Below are positions 1,021-17,090 of a DNA stretch of 39,545 bases, piece by piece. The stretch lies in IMG/VR virus record IMGVR_UViG_2913152634_000006, one strand, 5' to 3'. Made by a program: the position numbers and the translations under genes. Position 1 is the first letter of the stretch. Each line of letters opens with the position of its first letter. The DNA comes from a virus (taxonomy: Duplodnaviria > Heunggongvirae > Uroviricota > Caudoviricetes). The notes beneath the pieces are model-generated. The model had not been told where the DNA came from. It did no database searches and saw only the letters and a program-made list of their open reading frames with translations.

Positions 1021-1101
1021 TGAACCGCTCTACAATTTCTCCAGCCTCTTTCCAGCAATAATCAGACCAGACAAAAAGCAGGTCTAACCAGTTTTCTGGC
1101 C

Positions 1102-1440: not shown

Positions 1441-1480
1441 CGCAACATGCCACATCGGGCACAAACATAAAAACACTCAA

Positions 1481-1510
1481 ATAAGCCGATATAAGCCATT
1501 TTGAGCCATT
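1481..1510. promoter_or_regulatory. Candidate operator: three tandem direct 10-bp repeats (ataagccgat / ataagccatt / ttgagccatt) in the repressor-cox intergenic region
   Basis: Directly read; P2-type C repressors bind direct repeats flanking the early promoter; a TATAAG -10-like hexamer lies within the repeats about 45 bp upstream of the cox ATG. Confidence 0.4.
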
Positions 1511-1535
1511 CGAACGAATTAGGGAGATTACCACA

Positions 1536-1823
1536 ATGAGCGAATCAGAGCTTGGGGGGTTCATTCAGGTAGCACCATATCCACTTGAAGCGGTGCCATA
1601 TCAACTATTCGCCAAGATGATCGGCCGCAAGGAATCCACAGTCAGAACCATGATTGACGCAGCAAAGCTACCGACAATTGACTTTGTGAAACCAGGTTCA
1701 CTAAAGACGCGTGCATCAGAAAACTGGGTATATCTGCCAGCATTTAACGAAGGCATGCGCAAAGCGTTTTTTGAGCAACCGAAAGAACGCCGCGACGCAT
1801 GGTTGTTGTGGCTGGGACTTTAG
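1536..1823 (+). CDS. cox: Cox-like excisionase / early transcriptional regulator
   Basis: 95 aa; C-terminal NWVYLPAFNEG...RRDAWLLWLGL closely resembles recalled P2 Cox (YWVYLPAWNNG...WLMWLGL); position immediately right of the repressor, divergent. Confidence 0.8.
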   Translation: MSESELGGFIQVAPYPLEAVPYQLFAKMIGRKESTVRTMIDAAKLPTIDFVKPGSLKTRASENWVYLPAFNEGMRKAFFEQPKERRDAWLLWLGL

Positions 1824-1829
1824 TCATAA

Positions 1830-2036
1830 ATGACCAGCCATATCATCAGTGCCATTCTGATCCTTGTTTTTATTGAGATAGGCGTAATAGAGATCTATTT
1901 GTTTCGCAAGTTAACGGGACATGAAGAACGCTTTATTGAACTCAGCATTGAATATATCGCTGCTTATACCAAAGGACTTTTCCCGGCAGCTATTGGGGCG
2001 ATGTTTATAGCGTTTGTTATCTGGTTTATCGGGTGA
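1830..2036 (+). CDS. Small hydrophobic protein (two predicted TM helices), function unknown
   Basis: 68-aa ORF, strongly hydrophobic (ILILVFIEIGVIEIYLF ... IGAMFIAFVIWFIG); starts 7 nt after the cox stop. Confidence 0.4.
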   Translation: MTSHIISAILILVFIEIGVIEIYLFRKLTGHEERFIELSIEYIAAYTKGLFPAAIGAMFIAFVIWFIG

Positions 2037-2288
2037 GAAACCTGACAACCCACAACTACTGCAATGAGGGTAATTATGTGTGGCATGGACAAATTGGACC
2101 TTATGTTAATTGTAATACTATCAATTAACTTCGGTTACCTCTTAAGCGGCGCAATTCTCATGTGCGGAGGCAAACGAAAATGAACCAGCAGTCCGCAAAA
2201 CGTGAAAACAATGCGATGCGATTTAATCGCAAATATTTTGAGTTCGGCCTCTATGCCGGAATAATTAAATCTGTACAGAGTCTTTAAC

Positions 2289-2630
2289 ATGAAACAGCAA
2301 CGTAATTCACGCTTTCGCAATGGTGCAGAACGCCACGCTAACCGTTTTGCTACCAGTGCATCACGCAGCAACATCCGCTACAGCCTGAGTGATACACACG
2401 CAACGCCGGATGGCTACCCAGTAAAACAAATCGGCGAGCATGCCTGGCTGATTGAGAAAGCTGGAATCGTGATCCACAAATGCCCACGCAATCCGTTTAC
2501 CGGAAACCGCATTTTTGCTCTAAGCAGTGGCGACAATCAGTTCGGGCAGGATTTCACATTATACGAAGCACTTCGCACGGTTGATCGTCTGCTTCGCGGG
2601 CAAAGTTTTATTAAACAGGCTGATTTATAA
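2289..2630 (+). CDS. Hypothetical early protein
   Basis: 113-aa ORF, ATG 1 nt after the stop of a possible 35-codon upstream ORF; no family recognised with confidence. Confidence 0.5.
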   Translation: MKQQRNSRFRNGAERHANRFATSASRSNIRYSLSDTHATPDGYPVKQIGEHAWLIEKAGIVIHKCPRNPFTGNRIFALSSGDNQFGQDFTLYEALRTVDRLLRGQSFIKQADL

Positions 2631-2640
2631 CAGGTGCTTT

Positions 2641-2928
2641 ATGACCAAAGACCATGCACAAGGTGTATTTATCCGTTTTATTGATTTTCGCGGTGAATTG
2701 TTATTACGTGCATCCGCTATTGACGGAGTGACTCCGGCGGGTAAAAACGGAGCCGACGAAGCCACTTACGTTTATCTGAACGGCACGCGACTGCTTGTGG
2801 AACTTCCGTACCAGACCGTACGAGAAATCATTAGCGAAGCTGAAAAGGCACGCCAGGTTAATGGCGATGAACCCTATATCGAAATTATTTGTATGGATTC
2901 AGAAGCTGAAATACAGAAAGCAGATTAA
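2641..2928 (+). CDS. Hypothetical early protein
   Basis: In-frame ATG at 2641 preceded by GGTG (MTKDHAQGVFIRF...); the ORF-track start at 2527 would overlap the upstream gene by about 100 nt, so the shorter form is preferred. Confidence 0.5.
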   Translation: MTKDHAQGVFIRFIDFRGELLLRASAIDGVTPAGKNGADEATYVYLNGTRLLVELPYQTVREIISEAEKARQVNGDEPYIEIICMDSEAEIQKAD

Positions 2929-2939
2929 AGGGCGTTGTG

Positions 2940-3182
2940 ATGGGCAAAGAATATAAAACTCTCATTAACAAAGCACTTGAGCGTTTTTATTTTCGCTTAA
3001 GTGCATCAGGCGCTCATGCTGAACGTGCGGCCCGTGACTCATTGACCAGAGCAATCCGAAGTCTGTATGACGTGGCTTTTTACGCTGATGATCTGGATGC
3101 ACTTAACGAACTTTCCGAGCTGATCTGTGCCGCAGAATGCGGGGAACATATTGAACCGTATAAGCTGGGGAATATCGCATGA
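2940..3182 (+). CDS. Hypothetical early protein
   Basis: 80-81-aa ORF (GTG 2937 or ATG 2940), follows the previous gene by 9-12 nt. Confidence 0.5.
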   Translation: MGKEYKTLINKALERFYFRLSASGAHAERAARDSLTRAIRSLYDVAFYADDLDALNELSELICAAECGEHIEPYKLGNIA

Positions 3183-3292
3183 GTATATTTATCTCATGGC
3201 TTGTTCTGATTATTTCGGTGGCCTGCGCTATTGGGATTATGCGAATTATTCATTCAATAAAAAAGATTGAACGCTTTTTCACTGGCGAATAA
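3179..3292 (+). CDS. Possible 37-aa membrane peptide (MSIFISWLVLIISVACAIGIMRIIHSIKKIERFFTGE)
   Basis: ATG overlaps the upstream stop (ATGA); single hydrophobic helix; below the ORF-track size cutoff, found by hand translation. Confidence 0.3.
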   Translation: MSIFISWLVLIISVACAIGIMRIIHSIKKIERFFTGE

Positions 3293-3378
3293 CAGAGCAA
3301 ATAAAACCACAGATTAAATAAGAAAATGTAAAAACAATCCGCATTCGCGGAGGTATTCGCACACGCCAAGGAGGCGTA

Positions 3379-3582
3379 ATGGCAATTAAGCATTTTCCTG
3401 TCGTTCGTTTTACCTCCAGAGGGCGTGAATACGAAGTCGACGAACGCCTGATTACCACAATCGACAAACACCGTTCAGAAAAGGATGCACATCACATCTA
3501 TCTCACTGACGGCACTTACTTCTGCGCCACGAATGTGGTGCGGGTGAACCTTATCCGACAGGTACAGGAGTCACGCAGATGA
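3379..3582 (+). CDS. Hypothetical early protein
   Basis: 67-aa ORF with a strong SD (AAGGAGG) 6 nt upstream of the ATG. Confidence 0.55.
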   Translation: MAIKHFPVVRFTSRGREYEVDERLITTIDKHRSEKDAHHIYLTDGTYFCATNVVRVNLIRQVQESRR

Positions 3583-3824
3583 CCATTCTGGACTATATCG
3601 CCGCCAATCCGGGGTGTAGCGGTGGAGAAATCGCCGCAGCACTGAATACCCCAACCACAGCCATTAATGCGGAGTTACGCCGACTCTGGCGCAGCGGTTC
3701 AGTCATAAGAAAAGAGCGCAAAACAGGCGGTCGCTTTTCTTACCAGATAAACCCGATGCCGTTCGGGTGCGGCAATCCACTTACCAACACGTTTAACCAG
3801 CTACTGAAGGAAGCCAGAGCATGA
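3579..3824 (+). CDS. Putative small winged-helix DNA-binding protein
   Basis: 81-aa ORF, ATGA overlap with the upstream gene; DYIAANPGCSGGEIAAALNTPTTAINAELRRL resembles a winged-HTH recognition unit (motif-level inference only). Confidence 0.5.
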   Translation: MTILDYIAANPGCSGGEIAAALNTPTTAINAELRRLWRSGSVIRKERKTGGRFSYQINPMPFGCGNPLTNTFNQLLKEARA

Positions 3825-4120
3825 GCACCATCAACCACCAGAAGCTACGCGAACTGGCATTTGCCCTGCAACGAATGGCAACGCCTCAAAAATTACTGGC
3901 ATTTCGCGCAATGCTCTCGCCGTCTGCTGTGCTGGCACTGCTGAATGAGCTGGAGCACGCCAGAACCACGGCTCCTGCCATTCGCCTGACGCTCCATCAT
4001 GAAATCGCTGATTTCTGCGCGACGTTGGAGGCGCCGGGCGAACCGGAAACGCCGGAAGCAATACAGCAAGAGCTGCTGCAACGCATTGACAAGGTTTTTG
4101 ATTTTTTTCTGAACCAGTAA
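3821..4120 (+). CDS. Hypothetical early protein
   Basis: 99-aa ORF, ATGA overlap with the upstream gene, protein-like composition. Confidence 0.55.
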   Translation: MSTINHQKLRELAFALQRMATPQKLLAFRAMLSPSAVLALLNELEHARTTAPAIRLTLHHEIADFCATLEAPGEPETPEAIQQELLQRIDKVFDFFLNQ

Positions 4121-4242
4121 GAAACCAGAACATGCACACACAAAAAAACCGCTTGCCATGCCGCAATCAGTCAGGTTACATTTCCGCTGCACCTCATAAA
4201 ACGGGTGCCGGGATTTCCACCCCGCTGACAACTACAGCGCAC

Positions 4243-4265
4243 AACCGCGCCAGCGGTTTTTTTGT
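4243..4265 (+). terminator. Terminator-like hairpin (aACCGCgccaGCGGTt) followed by a T7 run inside the early region
   Basis: Directly read 6-bp GC-rich stem, 4-nt loop and ttttttt; lies in a 320-nt stretch without a convincing CDS. Confidence 0.35.
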
Positions 4266-4442
4266 GCGTACTGTATCGCCACGTCTTTTTCGCACACGAA
4301 TTATGGTGGGGCGTACGGGGCCGACTTCGGTCGGGCCGGGTTCTGTAGTTGCCGGTTGTGGAAACCCTGTACGTCTCACCACCCCGAGTTTTCCACCTCT
4401 GGATGGTGAGTTTTCAAAACTTGCAACTACAGAGGCCACACC

Positions 4443-4673
4443 ATGGCAAACCGCAAACAGCACCGCGCTATCGCGGAGCGTCGTCACATCCAGACTGAAA
4501 TCAACCGCAGACTTTTCCGCGCATCACGCGTCGCGCAAATCATGCACATCAATATGCTGCATGAGCGCAGCCACGCACTATCAAACATCTATTCCGCCGC
4601 TGTTTTCAGCTATCTGGCGGATGATCTGCACGAGCTTCAACAGCTCATCCAGCAGCAAAACAAACTCCATTAA
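4443..4673 (+). CDS. Hypothetical early protein
   Basis: 76-aa ORF with helical, protein-like composition; preferred over the overlapping 205-aa ORF 4132..4749, whose translation is S/T/P/R-rich and looks off-frame. Confidence 0.45.
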   Translation: MANRKQHRAIAERRHIQTEINRRLFRASRVAQIMHINMLHERSHALSNIYSAAVFSYLADDLHELQQLIQQQNKLH

Positions 4674-4745
4674 TTCCTGTTCCGGGCCTTTCCTGCACCT
4701 TGCGGCGGGAGGCCTTCGCACATCTGTAACAAGAGGATTGCCGCA

Positions 4746-5111
4746 ATGATTCTCGCCAACGACTTTCTTGAATACCTGCTCAACACAGAGCGTGATCTTG
4801 CCGTTCACGTGCGTGAACGTTATGACATGTACCTGAAATCCCTGCCTGTACCGCAGCTCGCTGACGGAAAGATTGTTATTGATGGTCGCTACATGATTGA
4901 CAGCCACGAGGGAAATTACAGGCTTTACCGCATTGAAGGTGGCACCCCGTCCGTTATTGGCATTTACCAGCGCCCATCCTCTGCAATCGTCGATGTGATT
5001 GCCGACAGCATCCGCATCACACATCGCCATGCCGACACAGAAGACACCGTGCTGGAAATTCAGCGGCTGGCTGCCGTCTGCCGCGACACCCTGAATGGCA
5101 TGACGAAGTAA
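4746..5111 (+). CDS. Hypothetical early protein preceding the replication gene
   Basis: 121-aa ORF, ends 6 nt before the gene A start. Confidence 0.55.
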   Translation: MILANDFLEYLLNTERDLAVHVRERYDMYLKSLPVPQLADGKIVIDGRYMIDSHEGNYRLYRIEGGTPSVIGIYQRPSSAIVDVIADSIRITHRHADTEDTVLEIQRLAAVCRDTLNGMTK

Positions 5112-5117
5112 ATCACT

Positions 5118-7943
5118 ATGACGGCAGAGTACATCAGGGACTGGCAACAACCGCGCCACGCAGTGGGACGTGAAGGAACGGGGATCCCCGTTCCTGAATC
5201 TGCGCTTTCCTCCTGGCTGGATGCCTACCGGGCAGAGAACGAGCGCCGCCAGGAAATGGCTGATGCGGCGTTCTCCGCCACGCCGCTGGGCAACCTGATT
5301 AATAAAAGCCTGGACGCACAGGAAAAACAGGACAAAACCATCACACTGGCAGGAGACGCCAGAAAACAGGCACGCGGCGCGGTGGATGAAGCCATGGCCT
5401 CGCTGCGCCTGCTGCCGTCCTATCTGCGCGATCCGCTTATTCGCCACCTCTCCTTCCTGCGCAAAAAACAGGAAGTCGATCGCCGGAAAGGCAAAAAGAG
5501 CTGGCAGGCTGAACGCTACGCGCGCGGAACCCTGCGCAAAATATTCGAACGTCTGGACCGCACCGACCACCGCTGGCTGACACCGGGTTATCGCTCCCTT
5601 GCCGGACGCGAACGCCTGGATGATTTGCTTTACCTGCCGCAGCTCAACAAGCACCAGATACAGACGCTGGCCACCATGACGGCGGCGATGTTCAGCAGCA
5701 CCTTCGAAAAACTCTGCGATGGCTTTGGCGCGACTGATGGCGAACTGACCATGGATGTAACGCTGAAGGCGTATCAGATGCTGGCCCGCATGGCGTTACA
5801 CCTGCACGCCATGCCTCCACATTATGACGCACTGACAACAGACAAAGACCGGAGGAACGAACCGGACACGGAGCTGCTGCCGGGCGCAATCCTTCGCCTG
5901 ACCTGTGCGGAATGGTGGAAACGCAAACTGTGGCTGTTACGTTGCGAGTGGAGAGAAGAACAACTCCGCGCCGCCTGTCTGGTTTCCAGAAAAACATCAC
6001 CCTATCTGAGCCAGGACGCGTTAAGCGAGTTTCGCGCACAGCGCGAGAAAACACGCGATTTCCTGAAAAGTTTCATGCTGGAAAATGAAGACGGGTTCAC
6101 GATTGATCTCGAGACAGTGTATTACGCGGGAGTAAGTAACCCGGTTCACCGTAAGGCAGAAATGATGGCCACCATGAAGGGACTGGAACTTCTGGCCGAA
6201 GCCCGTGGCGACAGAGCGGTGTTTCTGACCGTCACCTGCCCGTCAAAATACCACGCCACAACGGAGAACGGTCATCCGAACCCCAAATGGAACGGGGCCA
6301 CCATGCGCGACTCCAGCGATTACCTGGTTAACACGTTTTTTGCGGCGGTCCGCAAGAAACTGAACCGCGACGGCCTGCGCTGGTATGGCATCCGCACGGT
6401 GGAGCCTCACCATGACGGCACCGTGCACTGGCATATGATGGTCTTTGCTCATCCGGAAGAAATCGACACCATTGTGTCCCACACCCGCGATATTGCCATT
6501 CAGGAAGATCGTCACGAGCTGGGTGATGATATTACCCCACGCTTTAAGGCGGAGTACGTCGACGGCTCAAAAGGCACACCGACCAGCTACATCGCCACCT
6601 ACATTGGGAAAAACCTGGACAGCCGTGCCGTGGATGGCATCGACCCGAAAACGGGCAAGCCACGCGTTGACCACGAAACAGGTAAATCAATGGCCGAGAG
6701 CGTGGAGCGCGCCATCGGCTGGGCGCGCCTTCACCGGGTCCGTCAGTTCCAGTTCTTTGGCATCCCCTCCCGTCAGGTGTGGCGTGAACTGCGCCGCCTT
6801 GCCAGCCAGATGGCACGCAATCCGGAAGGCCCGCAACGGCTGAAAGATGATGCAATGGATGCGGTACTCGCTGCCGCCGATGCCGGGTGTTTTGCCACCT
6901 ACATTGAAAAACAGGGTGGCGTGCTTGTTCCACGCAAGGACTACCTGATTCGCACCGCCTACGACCTCGCAGATGAGCTGAACGATTACGGCGAACAGAG
7001 CGTACAGATTTACGGGATCTGGTCACCACTCATCGGGGAATCCTCCCGTGTGTGCACGCATCCGGATAACTGGAAGTTGGTAAGACGTAAACCAGAACCA
7101 GAAGACAACGCCCACGAAAATGGTTTTGACCTTCAGGGCGGCCCTGCCGCCCCTTGGACTCGTGGCAATAACTGTCCCCGTGTACAGGAAACAGGCAACA
7201 GCGGGACAGAACAGTCGAAAGAACGGCCTGCACCGTGGCCGCAGCTTCCTGACGGCGTTGAAGTGAACGAATGGATGCGCTCACTGAAACGGCACGAACG
7301 CCGGGCGCTGATGCGTTCGCTTCGTGACAAACAGGCAAAAAACAGCAGTGATGAAATGCAGAGCTGGACACAGAGCCGCAAACAGCAGCGGCCTTTGCCT
7401 GATAACCACGAATTACTCGCTAAAGAATGGCGGGAATCTGCCGAATCTCTCGGCCTGCATATCGGTGAACAGCAGATGCAGCACCTGTTACGGGGAGGCA
7501 GCCTGTACGTTGACGGCAGCATCATTGCACCGCAGGGATTTGAAATTGTACGCAAACCGGATACCCGCCCGGCCAGCCGAATCACGCAGCTCTGGCAGCG
7601 CCTGAGCCGTAATCACGGCGTAAGCAGCACAGAGATCCGTCATAACCCGGTCGCCAGCTATCTGGCACAGCTGGGGGCATCAGACCCCGAAGCCGCCGCA
7701 CGTCTGGCATCCACACTTCAGCAGGACCAGAACACCATGAAAACCCCCGTTACCGTGCTTTCTGACATGCTGCGCGCCATCCGTGACGCAGAGCACGCAC
7801 AAAGAATCAATGAAACCACTGAACGCGCCCGCCACAAGGCTACTTTGCTCCAAAAGAGAGGCAAACAGCACTTTAGTAATCAAAATGATGATGAGAAAAA
7901 ACAATTGCAAAGTTGGATATGCCTTTTCCATCATGAGGGATGA
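5118..7943 (+). CDS. A: Replication initiation endonuclease A (HUH rolling-circle initiator)
   Basis: 941 aa; HUH motif in GTVHWHMMVFAHP and paired catalytic tyrosines YIATYIGKN (Y-x3-Y) as in P2 gpA; position after the early operon; longer than P2 A (recalled 761 aa), with the 3' end running into AT-rich DNA. Confidence 0.85.
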   Translation: MTAEYIRDWQQPRHAVGREGTGIPVPESALSSWLDAYRAENERRQEMADAAFSATPLGNLINKSLDAQEKQDKTITLAGDARKQARGAVDEAMASLRLLPSYLRDPLIRHLSFLRKKQEVDRRKGKKSWQAERYARGTLRKIFERLDRTDHRWLTPGYRSLAGRERLDDLLYLPQLNKHQIQTLATMTAAMFSSTFEKLCDGFGATDGELTMDVTLKAYQMLARMALHLHAMPPHYDALTTDKDRRNEPDTELLPGAILRLTCAEWWKRKLWLLRCEWREEQLRAACLVSRKTSPYLSQDALSEFRAQREKTRDFLKSFMLENEDGFTIDLETVYYAGVSNPVHRKAEMMATMKGLELLAEARGDRAVFLTVTCPSKYHATTENGHPNPKWNGATMRDSSDYLVNTFFAAVRKKLNRDGLRWYGIRTVEPHHDGTVHWHMMVFAHPEEIDTIVSHTRDIAIQEDRHELGDDITPRFKAEYVDGSKGTPTSYIATYIGKNLDSRAVDGIDPKTGKPRVDHETGKSMAESVERAIGWARLHRVRQFQFFGIPSRQVWRELRRLASQMARNPEGPQRLKDDAMDAVLAAADAGCFATYIEKQGGVLVPRKDYLIRTAYDLADELNDYGEQSVQIYGIWSPLIGESSRVCTHPDNWKLVRRKPEPEDNAHENGFDLQGGPAAPWTRGNNCPRVQETGNSGTEQSKERPAPWPQLPDGVEVNEWMRSLKRHERRALMRSLRDKQAKNSSDEMQSWTQSRKQQRPLPDNHELLAKEWRESAESLGLHIGEQQMQHLLRGGSLYVDGSIIAPQGFEIVRKPDTRPASRITQLWQRLSRNHGVSSTEIRHNPVASYLAQLGASDPEAAARLASTLQQDQNTMKTPVTVLSDMLRAIRDAEHAQRINETTERARHKATLLQKRGKQHFSNQNDDEKKQLQSWICLFHHEG

Positions 7944-8128
7944 GATGTGAATCGCTAACCGAATATTGTGTTGAATAGAATGCAATTGATATAATTCCCC
8001 TTAATTCATTGAAAACTGGATTTTTTGCATAACTATGCAAATATCTATGGACGGCGACGATGTTTTTTATCGGGAAAACTCAAGTGCCATGTTAAGATTA
8101 TGTTTATTTTTTACTGAGAAAATCGTGG

Positions 8129-8974
8129 ATGACAAAGCCTTCTCATTTTAGAACCCCTCTTCGTTATCCGGGAGGTAAGGCAAAATTCTTGCCACATATT
8201 GAACAAATACTCCGCAACAATGATCTCATTGGTGGATGTTATGCTGAACCTTATGCAGGTGGAGCCGGTGTAGCATTAGGTTTGCTCCTTAACGGTCTTG
8301 TTGAAAATATCTTCATAAATGATATTGATCCTGCCATTTATTCTTTTTGGTTTGCAGTGGTTAATCATAACGATCTGTTATGTGAAATGATTGATGAAGT
8401 TCCTGTGACTATTGAAAATTGGCATACTCAAAAGGAGATACTCCTAAACAATGATAAATATAGTATGCTTGAAGTCGCATTATCTACTTTCTTTTTAAAT
8501 AGAACAAACCGTTCAGGAATACTTAAGGCTGGCGTTATTGGAGGGAAAGAACAAAAAGGACCATGGAAGTTAGATGCAAGATTCAACAAAAAAGAGTTAA
8601 TTAAAAGGATTGAACTAATTGGTGCATATAAGGAGAAAATTTACGTATCGAATTTTGATGCTGTAGATTTTCTGCTACACCAAAAAGCATTGCTACCCAA
8701 AAATAGTCTAATATATCTTGATCCACCTTATTATGTTAAAGGAGCAGAGTTATATAGAAATTTTTATAAACATGATGATCATGTAAAAATCGCTAATACA
8801 CTACGGGAAATTCAACTACCTTGGGTTGTGTCTTATGACAATGTGCCTGAAATAAAAAGCATATATCATGAATTCAATATGACTGATTATACGCTTAATT
8901 ATACTGCACAAGATAAGAAAAAAGGTCTAGAAATTATCATTTATAATCATGGTATAAAAATCCCTGACATTTAA
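8129..8974 (+). CDS. Dam-family (D12-class, alpha-type) N6-adenine DNA methyltransferase
   Basis: 281 aa; N-terminal RYPGGKAKFL, SAM-binding EPYAGGAGV, catalytic DPPYY; AT-rich coding sequence with an AT-rich upstream region. Confidence 0.85.
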   Translation: MTKPSHFRTPLRYPGGKAKFLPHIEQILRNNDLIGGCYAEPYAGGAGVALGLLLNGLVENIFINDIDPAIYSFWFAVVNHNDLLCEMIDEVPVTIENWHTQKEILLNNDKYSMLEVALSTFFLNRTNRSGILKAGVIGGKEQKGPWKLDARFNKKELIKRIELIGAYKEKIYVSNFDAVDFLLHQKALLPKNSLIYLDPPYYVKGAELYRNFYKHDDHVKIANTLREIQLPWVVSYDNVPEIKSIYHEFNMTDYTLNYTAQDKKKGLEIIIYNHGIKIPDI

Positions 8975-8991
8975 ATTTAAGGATGATATAG

Positions 8992-10689
8992 ATGATTAAA
9001 GAAATTAGTTTTAAAAAATTTAAGAAACTGATAGATATTGACTTCTCATTCAATGAAGACATCAATATAATATCAGGAACCAATGGGACATGTAAGACAA
9101 CATTGCTTCATTTAATTAGCAATGGTTTCCAAATGCCACCATCTCGATCACAAAATTATTCAAATAGTAATTGTGTTAGAGTTATAAAATCTATAAACAA
9201 AATAGCCAACCCCAAAATGGAAGCAATTGTTAGGGAATCAAAAAATTACACCGATCCGGCAGAGGGAACAAAAGGTGTGTTATTTTCTATTAACTATTTG
9301 GATCATAGCACACTAGACTTCAGAAAGCACAACTCAAAAAATCCAGACGAAGCGCAACGGTATGCTATCAAACCAGTATACCCACGCGGAAAAGAAAAAC
9401 AATCACTTCCAGCTAAACCAGTTTTATATCTTGGATTATCGCGACTATTCCCAATTGGTGAAACTAAAGACGACGCCCTTACAAAAATTCCGTTAAACCT
9501 ACCAGAAGAGTATGTTGGTTATATATCGAAAATATATAATGAACTTTTGGGCATTAATATTATAAATATAGAATCAAACAATATCGGAGATTTTAAAGCT
9601 GGCCCATTATTTGATACCGATAACCCAGCAATTGATTCTAATACCATATCATCCGGGGAAGACAATATATTCATTATAATCAAGGCATTAGTTAGCCTTA
9701 GGTATTATTTTGAATCACTTATTCAATCCACTGATCAAAAAGAAAGCATTCTGTTAATAGATGAATTTGATGCCACTTTACATCCTTCTTTACAGATAAG
9801 ATTATTAGATAAAATTTATCAATACGCAAAAGATTATAAGATTCAAGTATTTTTCACAACGCACAGTCTGACATTGCTAGAGTATGCTTTTCATAAAAAA
9901 TACCATGTTGTCTATCTAATTAACAATATTACAAAGGCTCTGCTTTTGGATAATCCTGATATATTAAAAATAACAATGTATCTGAAAACACAAACAAAGG
10001 ATGAGATATACACAAGGAACAAGATACCAGTTTTCACGGAAGATGAAGAAGCTCGCTTTTTATTTAATGAAATACTTGGTTATTGGATAAGCAAATATCC
10101 AAATTTTGCTATAGTTAGTAATTCATTTCACTTAATTGATTGTTTCATTGGCGCAGACAATTTAAAAACTATTTTTAATGATTCTCATCTTAAGGAAACC
10201 TCGTTAAAATCAATTTGTATTCTTGATGGAGATCACAGCCCTGAGGATCAGAGAGGAATTATATCACTGCCGGGTGAAAAAGCTCCAGAACAATTGATAT
10301 TTGAGCATTGTGAGCACCTTTATAATACCGACGACTCTTCCTTCTGGGAAAATCAGGATATAATTAACAATGGTTTTTCGAAAGAGTTATACTTACTCAA
10401 GATACGTCCTCAATTACAATCAATTGAAACTGAAATTCAGAAAAGAAAAGACAACCATGAGTCTACATCCGGTTTAAGAAGAAGATTAAATAAGAAAATA
10501 TTCAATCAGCATATTGAATTCTTTAGAATGATTACAAGAAACTGGTTAGACAAACCAGAAAATCAGAAATCTCTCCAGTATTTTTACAATGGATTACGAT
10601 CCTTATTCTACCGGGTTACACCAACAAACGGCATTGACAGAAAAATTTGGGATTTTGACTATAACAAAATCATTAAAGAGGATAAATAA
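8992..10689 (+). CDS. ABC/AAA-type ATPase with probable C-terminal TOPRIM-like region (OLD-family-like nuclease candidate)
   Basis: 565 aa; N-terminal P-loop ISGTNGTCKTTLLHLI, Walker B/D-loop ILLIDEFDATLHP, H-loop VFFTTHSL; C-terminal acidic motifs VFTEDEE and ILDGDHS spaced about 55 aa apart, resembling TOPRIM Glu and DxD; begins 18 nt after the methyltransferase stop with SD AAGGATGA; occupies the locus where P2 carries old/tin. Confidence 0.8.
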   Translation: MIKEISFKKFKKLIDIDFSFNEDINIISGTNGTCKTTLLHLISNGFQMPPSRSQNYSNSNCVRVIKSINKIANPKMEAIVRESKNYTDPAEGTKGVLFSINYLDHSTLDFRKHNSKNPDEAQRYAIKPVYPRGKEKQSLPAKPVLYLGLSRLFPIGETKDDALTKIPLNLPEEYVGYISKIYNELLGINIINIESNNIGDFKAGPLFDTDNPAIDSNTISSGEDNIFIIIKALVSLRYYFESLIQSTDQKESILLIDEFDATLHPSLQIRLLDKIYQYAKDYKIQVFFTTHSLTLLEYAFHKKYHVVYLINNITKALLLDNPDILKITMYLKTQTKDEIYTRNKIPVFTEDEEARFLFNEILGYWISKYPNFAIVSNSFHLIDCFIGADNLKTIFNDSHLKETSLKSICILDGDHSPEDQRGIISLPGEKAPEQLIFEHCEHLYNTDDSSFWENQDIINNGFSKELYLLKIRPQLQSIETEIQKRKDNHESTSGLRRRLNKKIFNQHIEFFRMITRNWLDKPENQKSLQYFYNGLRSLFYRVTPTNGIDRKIWDFDYNKIIKEDK

Positions 10690-10767
10690 TGTATTCTAAT
10701 AGGATATAAACATCAAAGCTATATTTTTTACACATATCAAGAGTAAAAAATAATTTAACTTTTACAT

Positions 10768-10803
10768 AACGACCTCTTTTACAAATAAGTAGAAAAGGTC
10801 GTT
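10768..10803 (+). terminator. Strong hairpin (15-bp imperfect inverted repeat, 6-nt loop) ending the methyltransferase-ATPase operon
   Basis: aacgacctcttttac / gtagaaaaggtcgtt read directly, 80 nt downstream of the ATPase stop; no canonical long U-tract. Confidence 0.45.
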
Positions 10804-10928
10804 ATAACTCTCATCTCCATAGCATGTAATTTTCTTTGCATATTTTCACATAACAGTCAGGGATGTATTTATAAGCAACGTCGTATACATAGGCTCAATT
10901 TTTCTATAAATAAGCACTCCGTTCGGTT

Positions 10929-10955
10929 TGCACAATAGTGCACAAATTTGCACAA
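10929..10955. repeat. Three direct TGCACAA repeats at exact 10-bp phasing, followed by a T7 run
   Basis: tgcacaa at 10929, 10939, 10949; lies in the A-to-Q interval where P2-like phages carry cos; candidate protein-binding array. Confidence 0.5.
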
Positions 10956-11379
10956 TTTTTTTGAACGACTTTTTGCCCTTCCGGCCCGCATGGCGGCTGG
11001 ATCCGTCAAGGATCCGTGCGTGCACAAAAAAACGCGCTTTTTCTGCGCGCAGGTGACGGGGGAACAGCCCGCGTTTCAGGGGGTAAATAGCATTCCCTGA
11101 GCGATGTCGCAGCGACACAACAGAATGGCCATATTTCTCACGCTGAGCGTGAAAAAGATGTGAGGGCTTTTGATTTGATGGGGGGAAAGGTAAGGCCGTC
11201 AAAATCGCACTGAGGCGGCGAGAACATACAGTCAACGCGGTAGGATTGCGTAAGAGTCTGACCGTCGATGGTGGCGATAAACTGGAAGGCGTCGTGAAAT
11301 TATCTGATTGATACAGGAGCTGGAGAGTCGGGGCATAAATTTTTTATGCCCCGGCGAAGCAGCAGACAAGCGAAGCGCG

Positions 11380-12429
11380 TCAGGATGTGGGCTGGGTATC
11401 TAACAGTGCGTAAGGGTTAAAGCGGATCACCTCTTCGCCAAGCCAGTCATTGATGTGCTTCATGGCCTCCATGACGGGCATCAGCTCGTTAATTGCGTAA
11501 ACCCGCGCGGCCTTCTCCACATCACCAAACGCACTTTTTTCACCCGGCATCGCCCCCATCAGTTGCGGCGGAACGCGGTGCGCAGCCAGCACATCATCAC
11601 GGGATGCCGCCTTAACATTCATGAACTCATCCTTTGCTGTGATCTGCTGGAACGGCAAAATTTGCACACCTTCTTTGCCACCGTTGGGCGCATGAATGAG
11701 CACGTTTTTAAATGCACCACCACCACGCGCACCCTGTAACGTTTCTTTCAGGGAGTCCATGCTTTCGCGGTTTACCTGCGCTGCACCGATGTAGATGATG
11801 CACCCGGCGTGGGATCCGTTGTCGTAATACAGTTTTCTGAACATGTCCGCCGAATGAGACAGGCTGGCCGAGAGTAATGCGCCGAGATATTCCGGCATGC
11901 CGTAGATTTCCTGGTTAATATCCGGATTCATCAGGTGGCACACTTTGCCAGGGCGAAACTGAAACGCGTCCTTGCCATCCTGCACATACCACCATGATTC
12001 AAGATCGCTTCCGCGTCGCATGTATTTCGCCAGGGCGTGCCGTAATTTAAGCGGTTCGCCGAGCATATTGCTCCGAAGCTCAAGGAATGCGTTACCGAAC
12101 ACAAACCAGTCCAGCGCCAGCGCCGAGAAATCCTGCCGGGAAAGCAGCGGGTGCGGAATATAGCAACCGAGCAATACATTGCGCTTAAAGTAAAGCGCAG
12201 ACTGATGCCAGGACGTTTGCCGGGCAGCTCTTGCCAGACCGTACCAGTCCACCGGGGTTTCATACCACCGCCCGTTATCAGCACAGTACATATTGTCCAG
12301 CAGGTCATGCCCGGTCAGGCGATAAGGACCATCAAATGTGAATGCACTGAGCGATGATTCTTTCCTGAGCGCATCAGCGAGATCAATGCGTGAACTCATG
12401 CGCACTTTTTTATTTTTTCTGCTCATCAA
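11380..12429 (-). CDS. Q: Portal (capsid portal protein, gpQ)
   Basis: 349 aa; size and position (divergent from the O-N-M-L capsid block, immediately downstream of the large terminase with a 4-nt overlap) match P2 Q. Confidence 0.85.
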   Translation of the reverse strand: MMSRKNKKVRMSSRIDLADALRKESSLSAFTFDGPYRLTGHDLLDNMYCADNGRWYETPVDWYGLARAARQTSWHQSALYFKRNVLLGCYIPHPLLSRQDFSALALDWFVFGNAFLELRSNMLGEPLKLRHALAKYMRRGSDLESWWYVQDGKDAFQFRPGKVCHLMNPDINQEIYGMPEYLGALLSASLSHSADMFRKLYYDNGSHAGCIIYIGAAQVNRESMDSLKETLQGARGGGAFKNVLIHAPNGGKEGVQILPFQQITAKDEFMNVKAASRDDVLAAHRVPPQLMGAMPGEKSAFGDVEKAARVYAINELMPVMEAMKHINDWLGEEVIRFNPYALLDTQPTS

Positions 12430-14177
12430 AACTCCATAACCGTGAAACGCTCGTTTTCTCCTTCGCCGCCAATCGGTTCGTTAATGACAGCAAGCATGGT
12501 TGCCCACGCAAGGTCGCCGTGGCTGATCCCCCTCGCGCGGTCCGTTTCGTAAGTGATAAAGCCGCCCGGTGTTTTCACCTTACGCACGGCGTTAAAGGCC
12601 GCGACCAGCTCGCGTTCGGCGCGATCGTATTCCCACCGCCCGGCACGCATTATTTGCAGCATTTTCAGTACCAGCGACCGTTTTGATGACAGCGTGAAGG
12701 TGTACGGAATAGCAGCAGGGAAAAACCGTTTCACTATCTGATAAACAGCCTCCCCGTTCCCGCCTGTCACATCAATGCCGATGTGTTCCACGTTGTAGCG
12801 ATACGTGAACTCTTCAATGACTCTGGCCTGTTCTTCAAACTCCAGCCCCTGAACGCGTCGCGTCTCCACCGTTCGAAAACGGCCTCCAGGAACAGCCGGA
12901 GGAACCACCACGGACACAGCGCCGCTGTCGCCGTTGCCACTGCTGCCGTTTGCGTCATACCCAATCCATACCGGACGATTCCCCATCGGGCGGGGAGCAA
13001 AAGGTTTCCAGTCTTTCCAGTCGTCGTATCCGTCAACACCGCAGCCAATCAGGATATTCAGGTTAAATGCCGATACCCCTTCGCGGACAAACTCACACAT
13101 ATAGAGATTGAGGAACTCGTCTTCGGTGTTTTCATCACGAATTTCATCAATATCGGTGTGTTTCCAGCCGTGATTAACCACATCTTCCAGCGTGACAATC
13201 TGCCGCCACGTCCGGTCAGGGCAGATAAGCCCGTTATGCAGCGTTTTCCAGTCCACAGGAAAACGCTGGCGTTTATGCGTGGCCTTTTTCTCGTTCCAGC
13301 GGTCGCCGTTCCAGTAGGCGTATGCCTCGTGCGTTTCGGTGGATGGCGTGGAGAAGTAGGTGCGCCGCAGTCCGCTGAGGGTTGCCATAGCGCCAGCCAC
13401 CTTGCGCAGTTCAGCAAAGCGACTGACCCAGAAAAATTCATCAAAATAAAAATTGCCCGTATAGGACTGTGCCGATGCAGCAGAAGTGCCGAGAAAATGC
13501 AGCTCTGCGCCGTTGGAGAGGATGATTTTATCGCCCCCTTTCAGCTCCACATCAACTTCAGCCGCAGCCTTCTGAATAATGCTTTTAAACTGGAACGCCT
13601 GACGACGCGACGCAGACAAAAAAATCTGGTTACGCTGGTAAGGTTGCGCCACATCGTCACGCAGCGCCATCAGCAGAGCTTCCTGTGCAAAATACCAGGT
13701 CGCCCCAATCTGTCGGGATTTCAGGATCATCCTGTTACGTATCCCGGCTTCCCTGCAAAGGGTCAGGGAGTCAAACCAGCCCCGCTGATGCCACTCCAGC
13801 CTGCTGATGATTTTTTCCCGCAGTGCGGCAATCTGTTCCGGCGTGAAATGATTTTTAAGTTTTTTCGCCCGGCCTTTCTTTCCTGTGGCCGCCGCATCCG
13901 GCTGGCCATCATGCAGTTTTTTAAGCTGCCGGGTCAGCAGGTCTATTTCCTTGAAGTCACCACCTGTTTTATTCTGTTTTTCAGTGAGCTGGATGAGGCG
14001 CGCATCGATGGACTGCGTGACACGCTGCACGGGTGGCGTTTCATCCCACTGGTCGCGTTTTTTCCACGCATAAATCGTGTTCGGGTTTATTCCCATCAGA
14101 CGTGATATTTCTGCGGGCGGATAACCCTGCCAGTAAAGTTGACGCGCACGCTGGCGCACAAAAGCGTCCTGAATCAT
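12426..14177 (-). CDS. P: Terminase large subunit (ATPase, gpP)
   Basis: 583 aa; N-terminal HTH-like segment and ATPase region; P-Q same-strand pair divergent from the O gene as in P2. Confidence 0.9.
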   Translation of the reverse strand: MIQDAFVRQRARQLYWQGYPPAEISRLMGINPNTIYAWKKRDQWDETPPVQRVTQSIDARLIQLTEKQNKTGGDFKEIDLLTRQLKKLHDGQPDAAATGKKGRAKKLKNHFTPEQIAALREKIISRLEWHQRGWFDSLTLCREAGIRNRMILKSRQIGATWYFAQEALLMALRDDVAQPYQRNQIFLSASRRQAFQFKSIIQKAAAEVDVELKGGDKIILSNGAELHFLGTSAASAQSYTGNFYFDEFFWVSRFAELRKVAGAMATLSGLRRTYFSTPSTETHEAYAYWNGDRWNEKKATHKRQRFPVDWKTLHNGLICPDRTWRQIVTLEDVVNHGWKHTDIDEIRDENTEDEFLNLYMCEFVREGVSAFNLNILIGCGVDGYDDWKDWKPFAPRPMGNRPVWIGYDANGSSGNGDSGAVSVVVPPAVPGGRFRTVETRRVQGLEFEEQARVIEEFTYRYNVEHIGIDVTGGNGEAVYQIVKRFFPAAIPYTFTLSSKRSLVLKMLQIMRAGRWEYDRAERELVAAFNAVRKVKTPGGFITYETDRARGISHGDLAWATMLAVINEPIGGEGENERFTVMEF

Positions 14178-14331
14178 TGCTCCCCCTGAGTAATTACAGG
14201 AAGATTACCCGCGCGCGAAACTGTTCTCCTTAACCCCCTGTTCTGGCCGTTTTCTTACAACAAAAGCCCTTTGTATCAGCCTGTTACGCTTTGCCATCAT
14301 GACTGAAGAACCAGTCAGAGGGGCAAAAACT

Positions 14332-15168
14332 ATGGCTAATGAAAAAAAGACATCCCGCAAAAAGTTTCGCGTGGCTGTCTCCGGTGTAACGGCAGACGGG
14401 CGCGAAATCAACGGCGACATGCTGAAAGCTGCCGCCACCAGTTATAACCCGTCCGTTTATGGTGCACGTGTGAATATTGAGCACATCCTGTCACCACTCC
14501 CCGGTAGCGAGTTTTCCGCTATGGGCGATGTTGTGGGGTTGAGCACCGAAGACATAACCGATGGCCCGCTGGCAGGTCGCACGGCACTGTATGCCGAAAT
14601 TGAGCCGACCGCTCGCATGATGTCCCTGCTTAACGATGGTAAAAAAATTTACTCCAGTATTGAGCTGGAACCACAGTCAACCATCACGGGAGGTCCTTAC
14701 CTGCGCGGGCTGGCAATGACCGACACCCCTGCCAGCCTGGGCACGGAACGTCTGGCCTTTGCGGCACAACAACGTATGCAACTGATGACATTCAACTGTC
14801 AGCAGGGAGACGTGGCGATGTTTACCGCCGCTATGGAGTCAGAACTTATCGAACTCACCGAACAACGTCAGGAAGAAGGCACCCAGTGGTTTAACCGCGT
14901 TATGGGGATTATTGGCCGTGGCCGCAAAGCGGATGACGCCAGTTTCTCCCGTATTCAGGAAGCGGTGGAAGGTGTCGCAACGTCACAGGCCGACATTATC
15001 GACCGTTTTAATGTGCTGGAAACCCGCCATCAGCAGGACAGCCAGAAAATCACTTTACTGACCACAGAGCTGGCAGCACTGAAGGAAAAACTGCGCACGC
15101 AGGACGGCGATCCGCAGAACCGGTTCACCGCAACGGGCGCAGCCTCCGACCAGCTGGCTGACTTCTGA
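14332..15168 (+). CDS. O: Capsid scaffolding protein (gpO)
   Basis: Start chosen at ATG 14332 (SD-like AGAGGGG upstream; MANEKKTSRKKFRVAVSGVTADGREING...VYGARVNIEH resembles recalled P2 O N-terminus); ORF-track start 14299 lacks an SD. Confidence 0.8.
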   Translation: MANEKKTSRKKFRVAVSGVTADGREINGDMLKAAATSYNPSVYGARVNIEHILSPLPGSEFSAMGDVVGLSTEDITDGPLAGRTALYAEIEPTARMMSLLNDGKKIYSSIELEPQSTITGGPYLRGLAMTDTPASLGTERLAFAAQQRMQLMTFNCQQGDVAMFTAAMESELIELTEQRQEEGTQWFNRVMGIIGRGRKADDASFSRIQEAVEGVATSQADIIDRFNVLETRHQQDSQKITLLTTELAALKEKLRTQDGDPQNRFTATGAASDQLADF

Positions 15169-15191: not shown

Positions 15192-16244
15192 ATGAATCTG
15201 GTGATGTCAGATATTACCCGCAACAAGCTGGGTTGCTATATGGCGCAGCAGGCGTCGCTTAACAATATCCCGGTTTCTGCGCTGGTATCGCGATTTACCG
15301 TAGAACCCTCGGTGCAGCAGCGTTTTGAAAACGCCTCAAAGGAAAGCACCGAATTTACAAAAAGAATTAACGTGATCGGCGTGACCGACCAGAAAGGCGA
15401 AAAAATCCTCCTGGACACCACCGGGCCAATTGCACGCACGAATACCAGTTATGACGGCACAAAACGCCGTAACCCGAATAACGTGGTTGATCTGAAAAAC
15501 CGCAAATACCAGTGCGAACAGGTGAACTACGACACGTTTATTTCATATCCGCAGCTTGATGCCTGGGCGGCACATCCTGATTTTCAGTCCCGCATCAGCG
15601 CACAGATTGCCCGACAGGTGGCGCTTGACCGCATCATGATCGGTTTCAACGGCACGTCTCACGCGGATGAGTCCAACTTCAGCACCAACAAGCTGCTTCA
15701 GGACGTTAACGTGGGCTGGCTGGAGCACATCAGAACCGACGCCAGCGAGCGCGTTATGAATGACGTGACGCTGACCTCCCGCAACATGGACAACACCGTG
15801 GCGCACGCGGGTAAGTATGCGAACGCTGATGCACTGGTACAGGACGCACGCTCATCCCTGCTGGATGAATGGCACAAGGAAGCTGACGACCTCGTGGTGA
15901 TTATGGGGCGCAACCTGTTTAACTCGCTGCGTCTGCCCGTGCTGAACAGCATCAGCGGCCAGAATCCCAATGCGGAATTACTTGCCGGGCAGCTCATCCT
16001 GTCATCGCGCACCATTGGCGGGCTGGGCGTGTTCCTTGCGCCGTTCTTCCCGGATGCAACGATGCTGATCACCTCGTTCAACAACCTGTCGATTTACTGG
16101 CAGAAAGGTTCAATGCGTCGCCTGATGAAAGACGAGCCGGAATACAACCGCATCGCCACCTACCAGTCCATCAATGACGCTTATGTCGTTGAAGACTATG
16201 GCAAGTGCGCGATGGTCACTGGTCTGAAGTTCGCCGACAGCTAA
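15192..16244 (+). CDS. N: Major capsid protein (gpN)
   Basis: 350 aa; FTVEPSVQQRF...RINVIGVTDQKGEKI resembles recalled P2 N (FTVEPSVTQTL...RINIVPVSEMKGEKI); position after the scaffold gene. Confidence 0.9.
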   Translation: MNLVMSDITRNKLGCYMAQQASLNNIPVSALVSRFTVEPSVQQRFENASKESTEFTKRINVIGVTDQKGEKILLDTTGPIARTNTSYDGTKRRNPNNVVDLKNRKYQCEQVNYDTFISYPQLDAWAAHPDFQSRISAQIARQVALDRIMIGFNGTSHADESNFSTNKLLQDVNVGWLEHIRTDASERVMNDVTLTSRNMDNTVAHAGKYANADALVQDARSSLLDEWHKEADDLVVIMGRNLFNSLRLPVLNSISGQNPNAELLAGQLILSSRTIGGLGVFLAPFFPDATMLITSFNNLSIYWQKGSMRRLMKDEPEYNRIATYQSINDAYVVEDYGKCAMVTGLKFADS

Positions 16245-16289: not shown

Positions 16290-17090
16290 ATGATTACTCC
16301 TGCACAGCAACACTGGCAGAACGTGATGGCACAGCGCGCAGGCCGGGCGAATGAAGGCGTGGACCACGCCGCGCGTACCGCGCATGAAGAGGTGCTGTAT
16401 CGTCTGCGTCTGGCACAAGCCCGGCTTAAGGGCGTACAGGCCAGAAGCGCGAAAGCCGCCATCAAAAAAGAGTTGTTGCCGGACTTTTCCGGCTGGATTG
16501 AGGGAACGCTGGAGGCTGACGGCGGGCAGCAGGATGAAGTGATTGCCACGCTGATGGTGTGGGCGATTGACTGCGGCGATCTTCCGCTGGCGCTGCGTAT
16601 TGGTGCGTATGTGGTCCGTCACAACCTCATCATGCCGGATAACTTTGGCCGTACTGCTGCCACGGTACTGACCGAAGAAATCTGCAACCCGGTACTGACG
16701 CAGGCCGGGGCGGATGCCGACGCGGATTTGTCCGCCTTTATCGAACCACTGGACACCCTCCGGAAGATTGTCACCGACCAGGACATGCCGGACGAAGTAC
16801 GCGCCAAATTATGCAAGGCGTGCGCCTTTGCCCGTCGTGGTCTGAGCGATGCAGACAACATGGCCTTATCACTGAAGCTGCTGCGCGAAGCGATGCACCT
16901 GAACCCGAACGCAGGTGTGAAACGCGAGATTGCAACCCTTTCCCGCGCCCTGAAAAAAGCCGATTCCGCAGCCGAACCAGAAGACGCCAGCGCACAGCAG
17001 GCGCAGGACGAAAGCAGCAAAAGTAAAAAGACAACGCGGAAGCCTGCAACACGAAAAACCACCGCGACGCAGAAGGCGAAGCGCGGTTAA
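16290..17090 (+). CDS. M: Terminase small (endonuclease) subunit (gpM)
   Basis: 266 aa; KKELLP, MPDEVRAKL and a basic K/R-rich C-terminal tail as in P2 M. Confidence 0.85.
   Translation: MITPAQQHWQNVMAQRAGRANEGVDHAARTAHEEVLYRLRLAQARLKGVQARSAKAAIKKELLPDFSGWIEGTLEADGGQQDEVIATLMVWAIDCGDLPLALRIGAYVVRHNLIMPDNFGRTAATVLTEEICNPVLTQAGADADADLSAFIEPLDTLRKIVTDQDMPDEVRAKLCKACAFARRGLSDADNMALSLKLLREAMHLNPNAGVKREIATLSRALKKADSAAEPEDASAQQAQDESSKSKKTTRKPATRKTTATQKAKRG

Follow-up and report, generated by a model that had tools for sequence, protein, structure and literature searches.

Predicted Location of the cos Site in a P88-Like Prophage

The viral record IMGVR_UViG_2913152634_000006 of IMG/VR comprises 39,545 nucleotides (this whole stretch is referred to here as the window), and its interval 10690–11379, which separates a cargo cassette from the portal gene, raises the question of where the cohesive-end (cos) site lies and which sequence elements belong to the packaging signal. 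The original prediction, made from the sequence without database searches, placed cos in this interval on the basis of gene order and named two candidates for terminase or host-factor binding, or for a transcript end: three TGCACAA repeats at 10-bp spacing followed by seven Ts, and a hairpin beside the portal gene. A BLAST search of phage records showed that P88-like phages (Xuanwuvirus, Peduoviridae) are 94–98% identical to the window over 10926/10929–11379, and the window is an Escherichia coli prophage of this P88-like type within the P2 family. The comparisons described below indicate that the cos module very probably occupies 10929–11094, with the TGCACAA array at its left edge, and the hairpin is not part of it.

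The original prediction could not match the 19-nt cos sequence of P2, and our search of the window likewise returned no match with three or fewer mismatches. To place the nicking site (cosN), the cos junctions of P2, 186, and P4, the records of which annotate or start at the cohesive end, were compared with the window, as were Enterobacter phage phiT5282H (Novemvirus) and, from Klebsiella, three P2-like elements. This alignment with P2, 186, and related cos regions, which had been suggested as a check, singled out 11052–11070 (GGTGACGGGGGAACAGCCC), the best P2-like site, at which 13 of the 19 positions are the same as in P2 (GGCGAGGCGGGGAAAGCAC). The heptamer GCGCGCA that directly precedes it also precedes cosN in the Klebsiella elements 3LV2017, CP052639, and Kp4845, as well as the bottom-strand nick of P2, and a 24-nt block (GCGCAGGTGACGGGGGAACAGCCC) is identical in phiT5282H, which belongs to another genus, despite diverged flanks. 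By analogy with these phages, cosN is likely to lie within 3 nt of 11052–11070, and the predicted nick positions may be off by up to 2–3 nt. The expected placement of cos between the cargo cassette and the portal gene is thus borne out both by gene order and by a cosN-like 19-mer with conserved flanks. The portal gene is placed alike in the relatives collected through cosN (see below): wherever enough downstream sequence was available, the portal gene lay 218–955 bp downstream on the minus strand (110 of 110 loci).

The array was found as described, with TGCACAA at 10929–10935, 10939–10945, and 10949–10955, directly followed by the T7 tract at 10956–10962. A repeat finder additionally detected a fourth exact TGCACAA at 11021–11027, which was absent from the original prediction. 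Its start is 72 bp from that of the third copy, and it continues into an A7 tract that ends at 11032; the A7 tract at 11025–11032 is the inverted counterpart of the T7 tract. The lone heptamer is not enriched across the window (10 found and 10.3 expected); the phased triple did not occur in any of 100 dinucleotide shuffles, even when two mismatches were allowed.

In Escherichia coli, the segment 10926–11078 is 100% identical to strain E110019, and this part of the module was found in 1,151 of 5,426 complete genomes (21%). In nearly all of these genomes the match began at query position 1–4, so that homology of the phage backbone starts at 10926–10929. The conserved backbone thus begins at the first TGCACAA, with variable cargo on its left.

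One locus in IMG/VR is worth describing separately. In this prophage, an IS1 terminal inverted repeat abuts the junction of C and AGGTGACGGGGG, 1–2 nt to the left of the predicted cosN, and splits cosN from the units; the prophage therefore probably cannot be packaged.

Conservation and Geometry of cos Modules

To avoid selecting on the array, relatives were collected from IMG/VR by a 16-mer of cosN alone. In this collection, 116 of the 120 matches were real modules and 4 were chance matches; in genome contigs, 3 of 120 among the matches listed were real modules, and the rest were chance matches in GC-rich genomes. A weighted conservation profile of 102 distinct modules revealed three blocks with a conservation of at least 0.95. 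The first, at 10929–10962, contains the distal units and the T7 tract (the 3-nt spacers between the units scored 0.7–0.9). The second, at 11021–11030 (TGCACAAAAA), corresponds to the proximal island TGCACAAAAAA, and the third, at 11045–11074, contains cosN together with flanks that lie partly outside the 16-mer used for the search. Scores in the spacers and in the upstream DNA were about 0.3–0.6, with values of up to 0.9 within 10963–11020. This long spacer is largely replaced in phiT5282H, in the satellite island described below, and in more distant relatives, with its length kept; in the most distant P88-type modules it is wholly different and still of the same length.

Three phased YGCRMRA units were present in 94 of 95 P88-type modules. 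When TGCA was counted in bins of 10 nt, its density in the P88-type modules reached 0.93–0.98 between −130 and −101 and 1.04 between −40 and −31, the bin of the proximal unit, against a background of about 0.03 (all offsets are given from the first base of the cohesive end). In the window, P88, and phiT5282H, TGCA occurs at −123, −113, and −103 (distal) and at −31 (proximal), and in Klebsiella 3LV2017 at −121, −111, −101, and −38. Counterparts were found in P2 (−123, −111, −101, and −29), 186 (−124, −120, −111, and −101, with −35 and −29), and P4 (−124, −111, and −101, with −35 and −29); P4 has a further TGCA at −75, which was not counted as a unit. Using an 18-mer, we collected 106 unique P2-type modules, in which the TGCA density was 0.67–0.92 at the distal and 0.81–0.95 at the proximal positions; 20 of the loci had no portal gene and were P4-like. 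TGCA was present at −29 in 110 of 115 P2-type modules. A third and distant cos type, that of Smp131 in Stenotrophomonas and Xanthomonas (46 modules), has GCAG at −111 (87%), −101 (89%), −37 (74%), and −28 (98%), the last being part of a proximal TGCAG at −29 in 98% of the modules. The cos string of Ralstonia RSA1, as quoted in PMC5694545, had no match in viral contigs.

Set side by side, these sequences suggest a common geometry. Two distal units are located at about −102 and −112, with a spacing of 10 bp, and are usually accompanied by a third that is more remote from the cut; the proximal unit is located at about −30. The last distal unit is separated from the proximal unit by 72–73 bp (about seven helical turns), and the proximal unit from the nick by about three turns, so that all units would lie on the same side of the helix. 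Because the P2, P88, and Smp131 types all show units at matching offsets, we consider that this geometry has been kept across lineages with head and packaging proteins that are only 36–47% identical. The terminase-binding role proposed for the array is thus in keeping with the data: an element that forms the edge of the conserved backbone, recurs in other genera and in a satellite, and has counterparts in P2, 186, and P4 fits a packaging-recognition element.

Sharing of the Module With a Satellite Island

One weak match among the E. coli genomes (H121) led to a satellite-like island of about 9 kb that adjoins hpt and can. It was analyzed as the reverse complement of NZ_CP122604.1, 4120974–4133123, in which the island occupies about 10–9640. 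Its genes encode an Icd-like protein, an 889-amino-acid Toprim primase (P4-alpha-like), an integrase, an Ogr/Delta zinc finger protein, two proteins of unknown function, a capsid protein, and MazEF. The capsid protein is a P2-family major capsid protein of 423 amino acids with an N-terminal extension of about 120 amino acids. The island encodes no portal, terminase, or tail genes, and it lacks psu and sid. Judging from this gene content, the island would depend on the terminase of a helper, and it may be related to the P4-like satellites while encoding a capsid of its own.

The cos module of the island (6001–6166) corresponds to 10929–11094 of the window with 80.6% identity. Apart from part of the integrase gene and a 27-nt stretch, no other substantial DNA similarity between the island and the window was found. 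The three TGCACAA units, TGCACAAAAAA, and cosN are located at offsets identical to those in the window, the T-tract is T6, and the spacer and the short hairpin next to cosN have been rewritten. The limits of the module follow from two kinds of divergence: on the left it ends at −123 because of cargo turnover in the phages, and on the right at about +43 because of the divergence of the satellite. The cos site of P2 and P4 was originally recognized by the same logic of sharing between a phage and its satellite. The cos flank of the island was found in 56 of the 5,426 complete E. coli genomes, and 24 of the 40 listed among these 56 contained at least two P88-type cos places; for comparison, 21% of all genomes contain any.

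Unit Types and the Candidate Reader

The three cos types differ in the bases that follow the core of the unit. The P88-type distal unit is TGCA-C(0.99)-A(0.95)-A(1.00), and its proximal logo TGCACAAAAAAA is invariant in 97 modules. The P2 type has distal TGCA-T(0.90) and proximal TGCATTAAAACCG, and the Smp131 type has distal CGCAGGG and proximal TGCAG(AAAAA). In all three types, the type-specific extension is common to the distal and proximal units, and records derived from E. coli contain elements of both the P2 type and the P88 type. A shared host protein is a poor fit as the reader of the units, because the unit types change in step at both sites and co-occur in these records. The evidence from the units therefore favors a phage-encoded reader over a host factor. 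We put the chance that this reader is the terminase at about even on the basis of these comparisons, with the small subunit gpM as the main candidate and the N-terminal helix-turn-helix of the large subunit gpP as another. Of the four head and packaging proteins for which identity to P2 was determined (36–47%), gpM is the most diverged, which would fit an altered specificity but is confounded by phylogeny.

Two Klebsiella elements, phage 3LV2017 (L011, about 1500–1640) and CP052639 (L013), combine P88-type (TGCACAA-like) units with a P2-like cosN (GGCGAGGCGGGGGAGCAAG) and can be regarded as natural hybrids. Their existence suggests that the reading of the units and the reading of the nick site are separable.

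Proposed Model and Alternative Explanations

We propose a model, which we regard overall as fairly probable, in which the P88-type cos module is composed of three parts in helical register: the distal TGCACAA array with T7, the proximal TGCACAA with A7, and cosN flanked by GCGCGCA. The phage terminase (gpM, possibly helped by the helix-turn-helix of gpP) would read the four units on the same face, the DNA between them would be wrapped or looped, and the gpP nuclease would make staggered nicks in cosN to yield 19-nt 5′ cohesive ends. The sequence of the units would set the packaging-specificity class (TGCACAA here, TGCAT in P2, 186, and P4, and YGCAG in Smp131-like phages), and satellites would have to copy the class in order to be packaged. 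The hairpin at 11329–11353 would be a separate element, the 3′ end of the leftward terminase–portal transcript; since the hairpin would end that transcript, the cos module would lie between converging transcription units. We think it probable that the array is needed for packaging. A broader proposal, which is tentative and which we consider somewhat less likely than not, is that a phased YGCA array about 100–125 bp from the cut constitutes an essential terminase-recognition element of the P2 family, that its seven-turn register implies wrapping, and that the unit types decide the match between satellite and helper.

Several observations weigh against this model. Two TGCA motifs exactly 10 bp apart were present in only 77 of the 106 P2-type modules, and the third P2-type unit varies in position from −120 to −124. 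Relative to cosN, the units are on the side of the cargo, which is reportedly the last-packaged end in P2 and is opposite to the side of cosB in lambda, so that a role in the initiation of packaging is not assured; a role in termination or in the recognition of circles is equally possible. The common TGCA core could still be read by a host factor, and sequence alone cannot tell whether gpM, gpP, or a host protein is the reader. Neither public records nor viral contigs were found to start or end at the predicted cosN (truncated contigs end at arbitrary positions), and the linear record LR595891 was opened at the equivalent of 10973/10974, inside the spacer.

The idea that the units bind a host DNA-bending or architectural protein that aids the terminase (DnaA-like, IHF, or Fis) is favored by the YGCA core common to all cos types, and two units fit the relaxed DnaA box TTWTNCACA with one mismatch. 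Such boxes occur at chance level across the window (74 found, 75 expected), however, and the TGCAT units of the P2 type do not fit them. IHF assists terminase at lambda cosB, and its consensus WATCAANNNNTTR has no match in 10690–11379. Furthermore, the extension of the unit is type-specific (CAA, T, or GG) and changes together at the distal and proximal sites. We therefore regard this explanation as unlikely, and of the two kinds of binding protein originally suggested, a terminase or a host factor, the type-specific units argue for the phage protein and against the host factor.

Slightly less probable still is that the array and T7 form an intrinsic terminator, in which units 2 and 3 pair as GUGCA/UGCAC and are followed by U7, so that rightward early or cargo transcription would stop before cos, a function for which the element would have been conserved. 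A terminator-like match was indeed found on the plus strand at 10938–10953 plus AATTTTTTTG, and it counts to that extent against a role in packaging, although its score is weak. The cargo genes are transcribed toward the array, and terminator t95b of 186 is annotated upstream of cos. However, the stem would have only five pairs, and the RNA fold of the region is ordinary (z = −1.5, with 19 of 200 shuffles as stable). The first unit is not needed for the stem and is equally conserved; the arrays of the P2 and Smp131 types carry units at matching offsets but no T-run; t95b is located at −189 to −161, upstream of the 186 array and not inside it; and the satellite island keeps its array downstream of an integrase gene.

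A recombination boundary of the cargo hotspot, that is, a crossover or recombinase site conserved for the turnover of cargo, is very improbable. In more than 1,000 genomes, variable DNA gives way to conserved DNA exactly at the first unit, and Rousset et al. (PMC9122126) speculate that cos-adjacent ends drive exchange, but the same edge would be expected if the array were the outermost essential part of cos. In addition, the P4-like satellites keep the array although their hotspot is on the other side of cosN (PMC9122126), no recombinase is associated with the array, and this explanation does not account for a distance between array and cosN that is kept within 2 bp across phages at 36–47% protein identity. 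Finally, we give equally little credence to a true cut elsewhere in the interval, such as 10973/10974, with the P2-like 19-mer not being the cleavage site: besides the missing starts at cosN noted above, it is favored by LR595891/NC_049391 (P88_4B11), deposited as linear and starting at TGCCCTTCC, but the ends of LR595891 abut without a terminal repeat, overlap, or overhang, as in an arbitrarily opened circle, the site is in the poorly conserved spacer (we judge the opening arbitrary for these two reasons), and the 19-mer with its GCGCGCA flank is the best-conserved part of the module and resembles known cos ends.

The Portal-Side Hairpin

The perfect hairpin with a 10-bp stem reported at 11330–11352 is real, and its stem is one pair longer than was stated, with 11-bp arms. 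It starts 27 nt beyond the stop codon of the portal gene, which is an open reading frame (ORF) on the minus strand (11380–12429). Folded as minus-strand RNA in an 86-nt context, it has a free energy of −27.7 kcal/mol (z = −4.2), and none of 200 shuffles was as stable. Among the relatives collected by cosN, the 90 nt after the portal stop nearly always hold one strong hairpin. About 60 E. coli P88-type loci keep the CGGGGCATAAA palindrome with only rare single-base changes. In the Enterobacter and Klebsiella lineages, unrelated GC stems are followed by U-rich runs and represent canonical terminators; in P2, terminator tQ is annotated 6 nt after Q, and in 186, tW is annotated after the portal gene. 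Because position and structure are conserved here and the sequence is not, these comparisons support a transcript-end role. Of the roles originally offered for the hairpin, a transcript end is thus the better reading, given the tQ/tW position and the canonical terminators of the relatives.

As judged from these sequences, the hairpin somewhat more probably than otherwise marks the end of the terminase–portal (P–Q) transcript, and it may act as a 3′-end stabilizer or as an inefficient terminator. Two observations count against this interpretation: the hairpin has no U-run (the minus strand continues with GACUCUCC) and was not called by the terminator scan, and three relatives with portals 98–99% identical to that of the window (L061, L035, and L066) have unrelated DNA without a strong hairpin at this position. 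As in P2 tQ and 186 tW, a strong hairpin lies within about 30 nt of the portal stop on the portal strand; tQ has the canonical form of a GC stem with a T-run after it, whereas the hairpin in the window has an A/T-rich inner half and is perfectly palindromic.

The palindrome could instead be a site for a protein that binds duplex DNA, such as a dimeric regulator or the packaging machinery. Its perfect 11-bp arms around a 3-bp center, without a U-run on either strand, would suit such a site, as would an IMG/VR relative (L038) in which the arms are extended to 21 nt (GCTGCTTCGCCGGGGCATAAA / TTTATGCCCCGGCGAAGCAGC), of which the window keeps only the outer GCTG...CAGC. We consider this doubtful, though better placed than any of the alternatives for the array, because other lineages have unrelated GC hairpins at the same place, often with U-runs, P2 and 186 annotate terminators there, and the cos module of the satellite excludes the hairpin. 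A search of Rfam over 10500–11500 returned no family at threshold; the only match below it, gyrA-RNA over the hairpin, scored 22 bits against a gathering score of 45 and was treated as a chance match because of this sub-threshold score.

Gene Context and Other Features of the Interval

The coordinates of the genes and features are summarized in Table 1. The portal and large terminase genes are transcribed toward the interval, and gpA and the cargo genes are on its other side. This arrangement matches the published position of the cos-adjacent hotspot of P2, between gpA and gpQ (Rousset et al., 2022, PMC9122126). The cargo in this hotspot (8129–10689) has a high A+T content and probably represents a cassette for modification or for anti-phage defense.

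Table 1. Genes and sequence features around the predicted cos module, in window coordinates.
Feature	Position	Strand	Remarks
Replication protein gpA	5118–7943	+	Pfam
D12 (N6-)adenine methyltransferase, cargo	8129–8974	+	Pfam
AAA_15/AAA_21 (OLD/AbiEii-like) ATPase, 565 amino acids, cargo	8992–10689	+	Pfam
Distal array, 3× TGCACAA	10929–10955	+	Offsets −123, −113, −103 from predicted cosN; left edge of conserved module
T7 tract	10956–10962	+	Directly after array; mostly at least 95% conserved
Variable spacer	10963–11020	.	Contains GGATCCGT ×2 direct repeat (10999–11017), lineage-specific
Proximal TGCACAA + A7	11021–11032	+	Offset −31; at least 95% conserved at 11021–11030
Short GC hairpin CGCGC-TTTTTCT-GCGCG	11033–11049	−	A7 supplies T-run; terminator-like in scan
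cosN left flank GCGCGCA	11045–11051	+	At least 95% conserved; outside the collecting 16-mer
Predicted cosN GGTGACGGGGGAACAGCCC	11052–11070	+	19-nt 5′ cohesive end by analogy with P2
Module right flank GCGTTTCAGGGGGTAAATAGCAT	11071–11094	+	Conserved in E. coli P88-type, not in other genera
Non-coding stretch, P88-lineage-specific	11095–11328	.	Matches only P88-like records
Hairpin CGGGGCATAAA / TTTATGCCCCG	11329–11339 and 11343–11353	−	100% complementary, 3-nt loop
Portal, gpQ homologue	11380–12429 (stop included)	−	Pfam Phage_portal; 47% amino acid identity to P2 gpQ
Large terminase, gpP homologue	12426–14177	−	Pfam Terminase_5/HTH_23 (residues 6–63), Terminase_6N, Terminase_6C; 44% identity to P2 gpP
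GPO scaffold	14299–15168	+	Pfam
P2-family capsid	15192–16244	+	Pfam
Small terminase, gpM homologue	16290–17090	+	Pfam Phage_term_smal; 36% identity to P2 gpM

Several minor features of the interval were also evaluated. The short GC hairpin beside cosN gives a terminator-like site on the minus strand (stem from 11050 to 11032, six pairs, then TTTTTTGTGC); followed by T7, it is closer to the canonical form than the portal-side hairpin. Conservation of its stem is 0.4–0.6, and it is weak or absent in phiT5282H-type modules and in 3LV2017; since lineages other than that of E. coli do not retain the stem, it was rejected as a general conserved structure. A minus-strand ORF at 10846–11235 (129 amino acids) spans cos and is not credible. 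P88 is annotated with small ORFs in the segment from cos to the portal gene, and these are not open in the window. Within the lineage-specific non-coding stretch, a 15-nt imperfect palindrome (CATATTTCTCACGCT / AGCGTGAAAAAGATG) at 11130–11160 is moderately conserved in the P88 lineage.

Comparison With Known cos Systems and Implications

The cos site of P2 and P4 has been defined as a “55-bp core” with 19-nt 5′ cohesive ends (Ziermann and Calendar, 1990, as cited in PMC3931495, PMC5694545, and PMC9594776). Counted here, the 55 bp common to P2 and P4 extend in P2 from −29 (TGCATTAAAACC) to +26 (GCGCGC), and the fourth TGCACAA of the window corresponds to the first element of this core (TGCATTAAAACC). 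The literature covered, which mentions only the 55-bp core and does not include the 1990 definition of cos or the review of P2, yielded no description of a distal array or of a P2-family cosB. Longer flanks around the P4 cos raised the transduction of cosmids more than 1,000-fold (Cunliffe et al., PMC9594776), an effect that an essential element outside the core would produce.

The window resembles P2, 186, and P4 in that cos lies between the cargo hotspot and the portal gene, the predicted cosN is G+C-rich, the module is common to satellites, a TGCA next to an A-rich run is present some 30 bp upstream, and phased TGCA motifs are found at about −101, −111, and −123. It differs from P2 at 6 of the 19 positions of cosN, in its unit (TGCACAA instead of TGCAT), in its spacing (exactly 10/10 bp instead of 12–13/10 bp), in its conserved T7 and A7 tracts, and in having cos and the portal terminator separated by about 260 additional non-coding bases; its terminase proteins are only 36–44% identical to those of P2. 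The cos site of lambda (cosQ–cosN–cosB, with R3, I1, R2, and R1) is likewise a composite of about 150–200 bp, with a nicking site, phased repeats, and a short element about 20–30 bp upstream of the nick. In the window, by contrast, cosN separates the repeats from the terminase and portal genes, an IHF consensus is missing, 7-bp direct units take the place of the 16-bp R elements, and the proteins are unrelated in sequence. P2-family phages also differ from lambda in packaging monomeric circles (PMC2231350). With the units placed toward the cargo, the comparison with lambda cosB remains a positional one only.

For the window itself, the finding is essentially an ordinary one, the cos site of a common prophage type together with a hairpin at the end of an operon. 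Its added value is comparative, in that the TGCACAA array represents one form of a phased, type-specific element that is conserved in the cos sites of the P2 family and its satellites. Among the mobile elements of enterobacteria, P2-like prophages and their satellites rank with the commonest, and the hotspots adjacent to their cos sites hold much of the known anti-phage defense repertoire. A packaging signal of about 166 bp, which would comprise the distal array, the proximal unit, and cosN and extend well beyond the 55-bp core, tells annotators where the cargo ends. It also supplies a concrete explanation for the poor packaging of short 55-bp cos inserts in transducing particles based on P2 and P4. 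The unit types may serve as a sequence-level predictor of the compatibility between helpers and satellites (P2, P88, or Smp131 type). If this proposal is true, the unit classes would decide which satellites parasitize which helpers, including the satellite family that carries a capsid gene.

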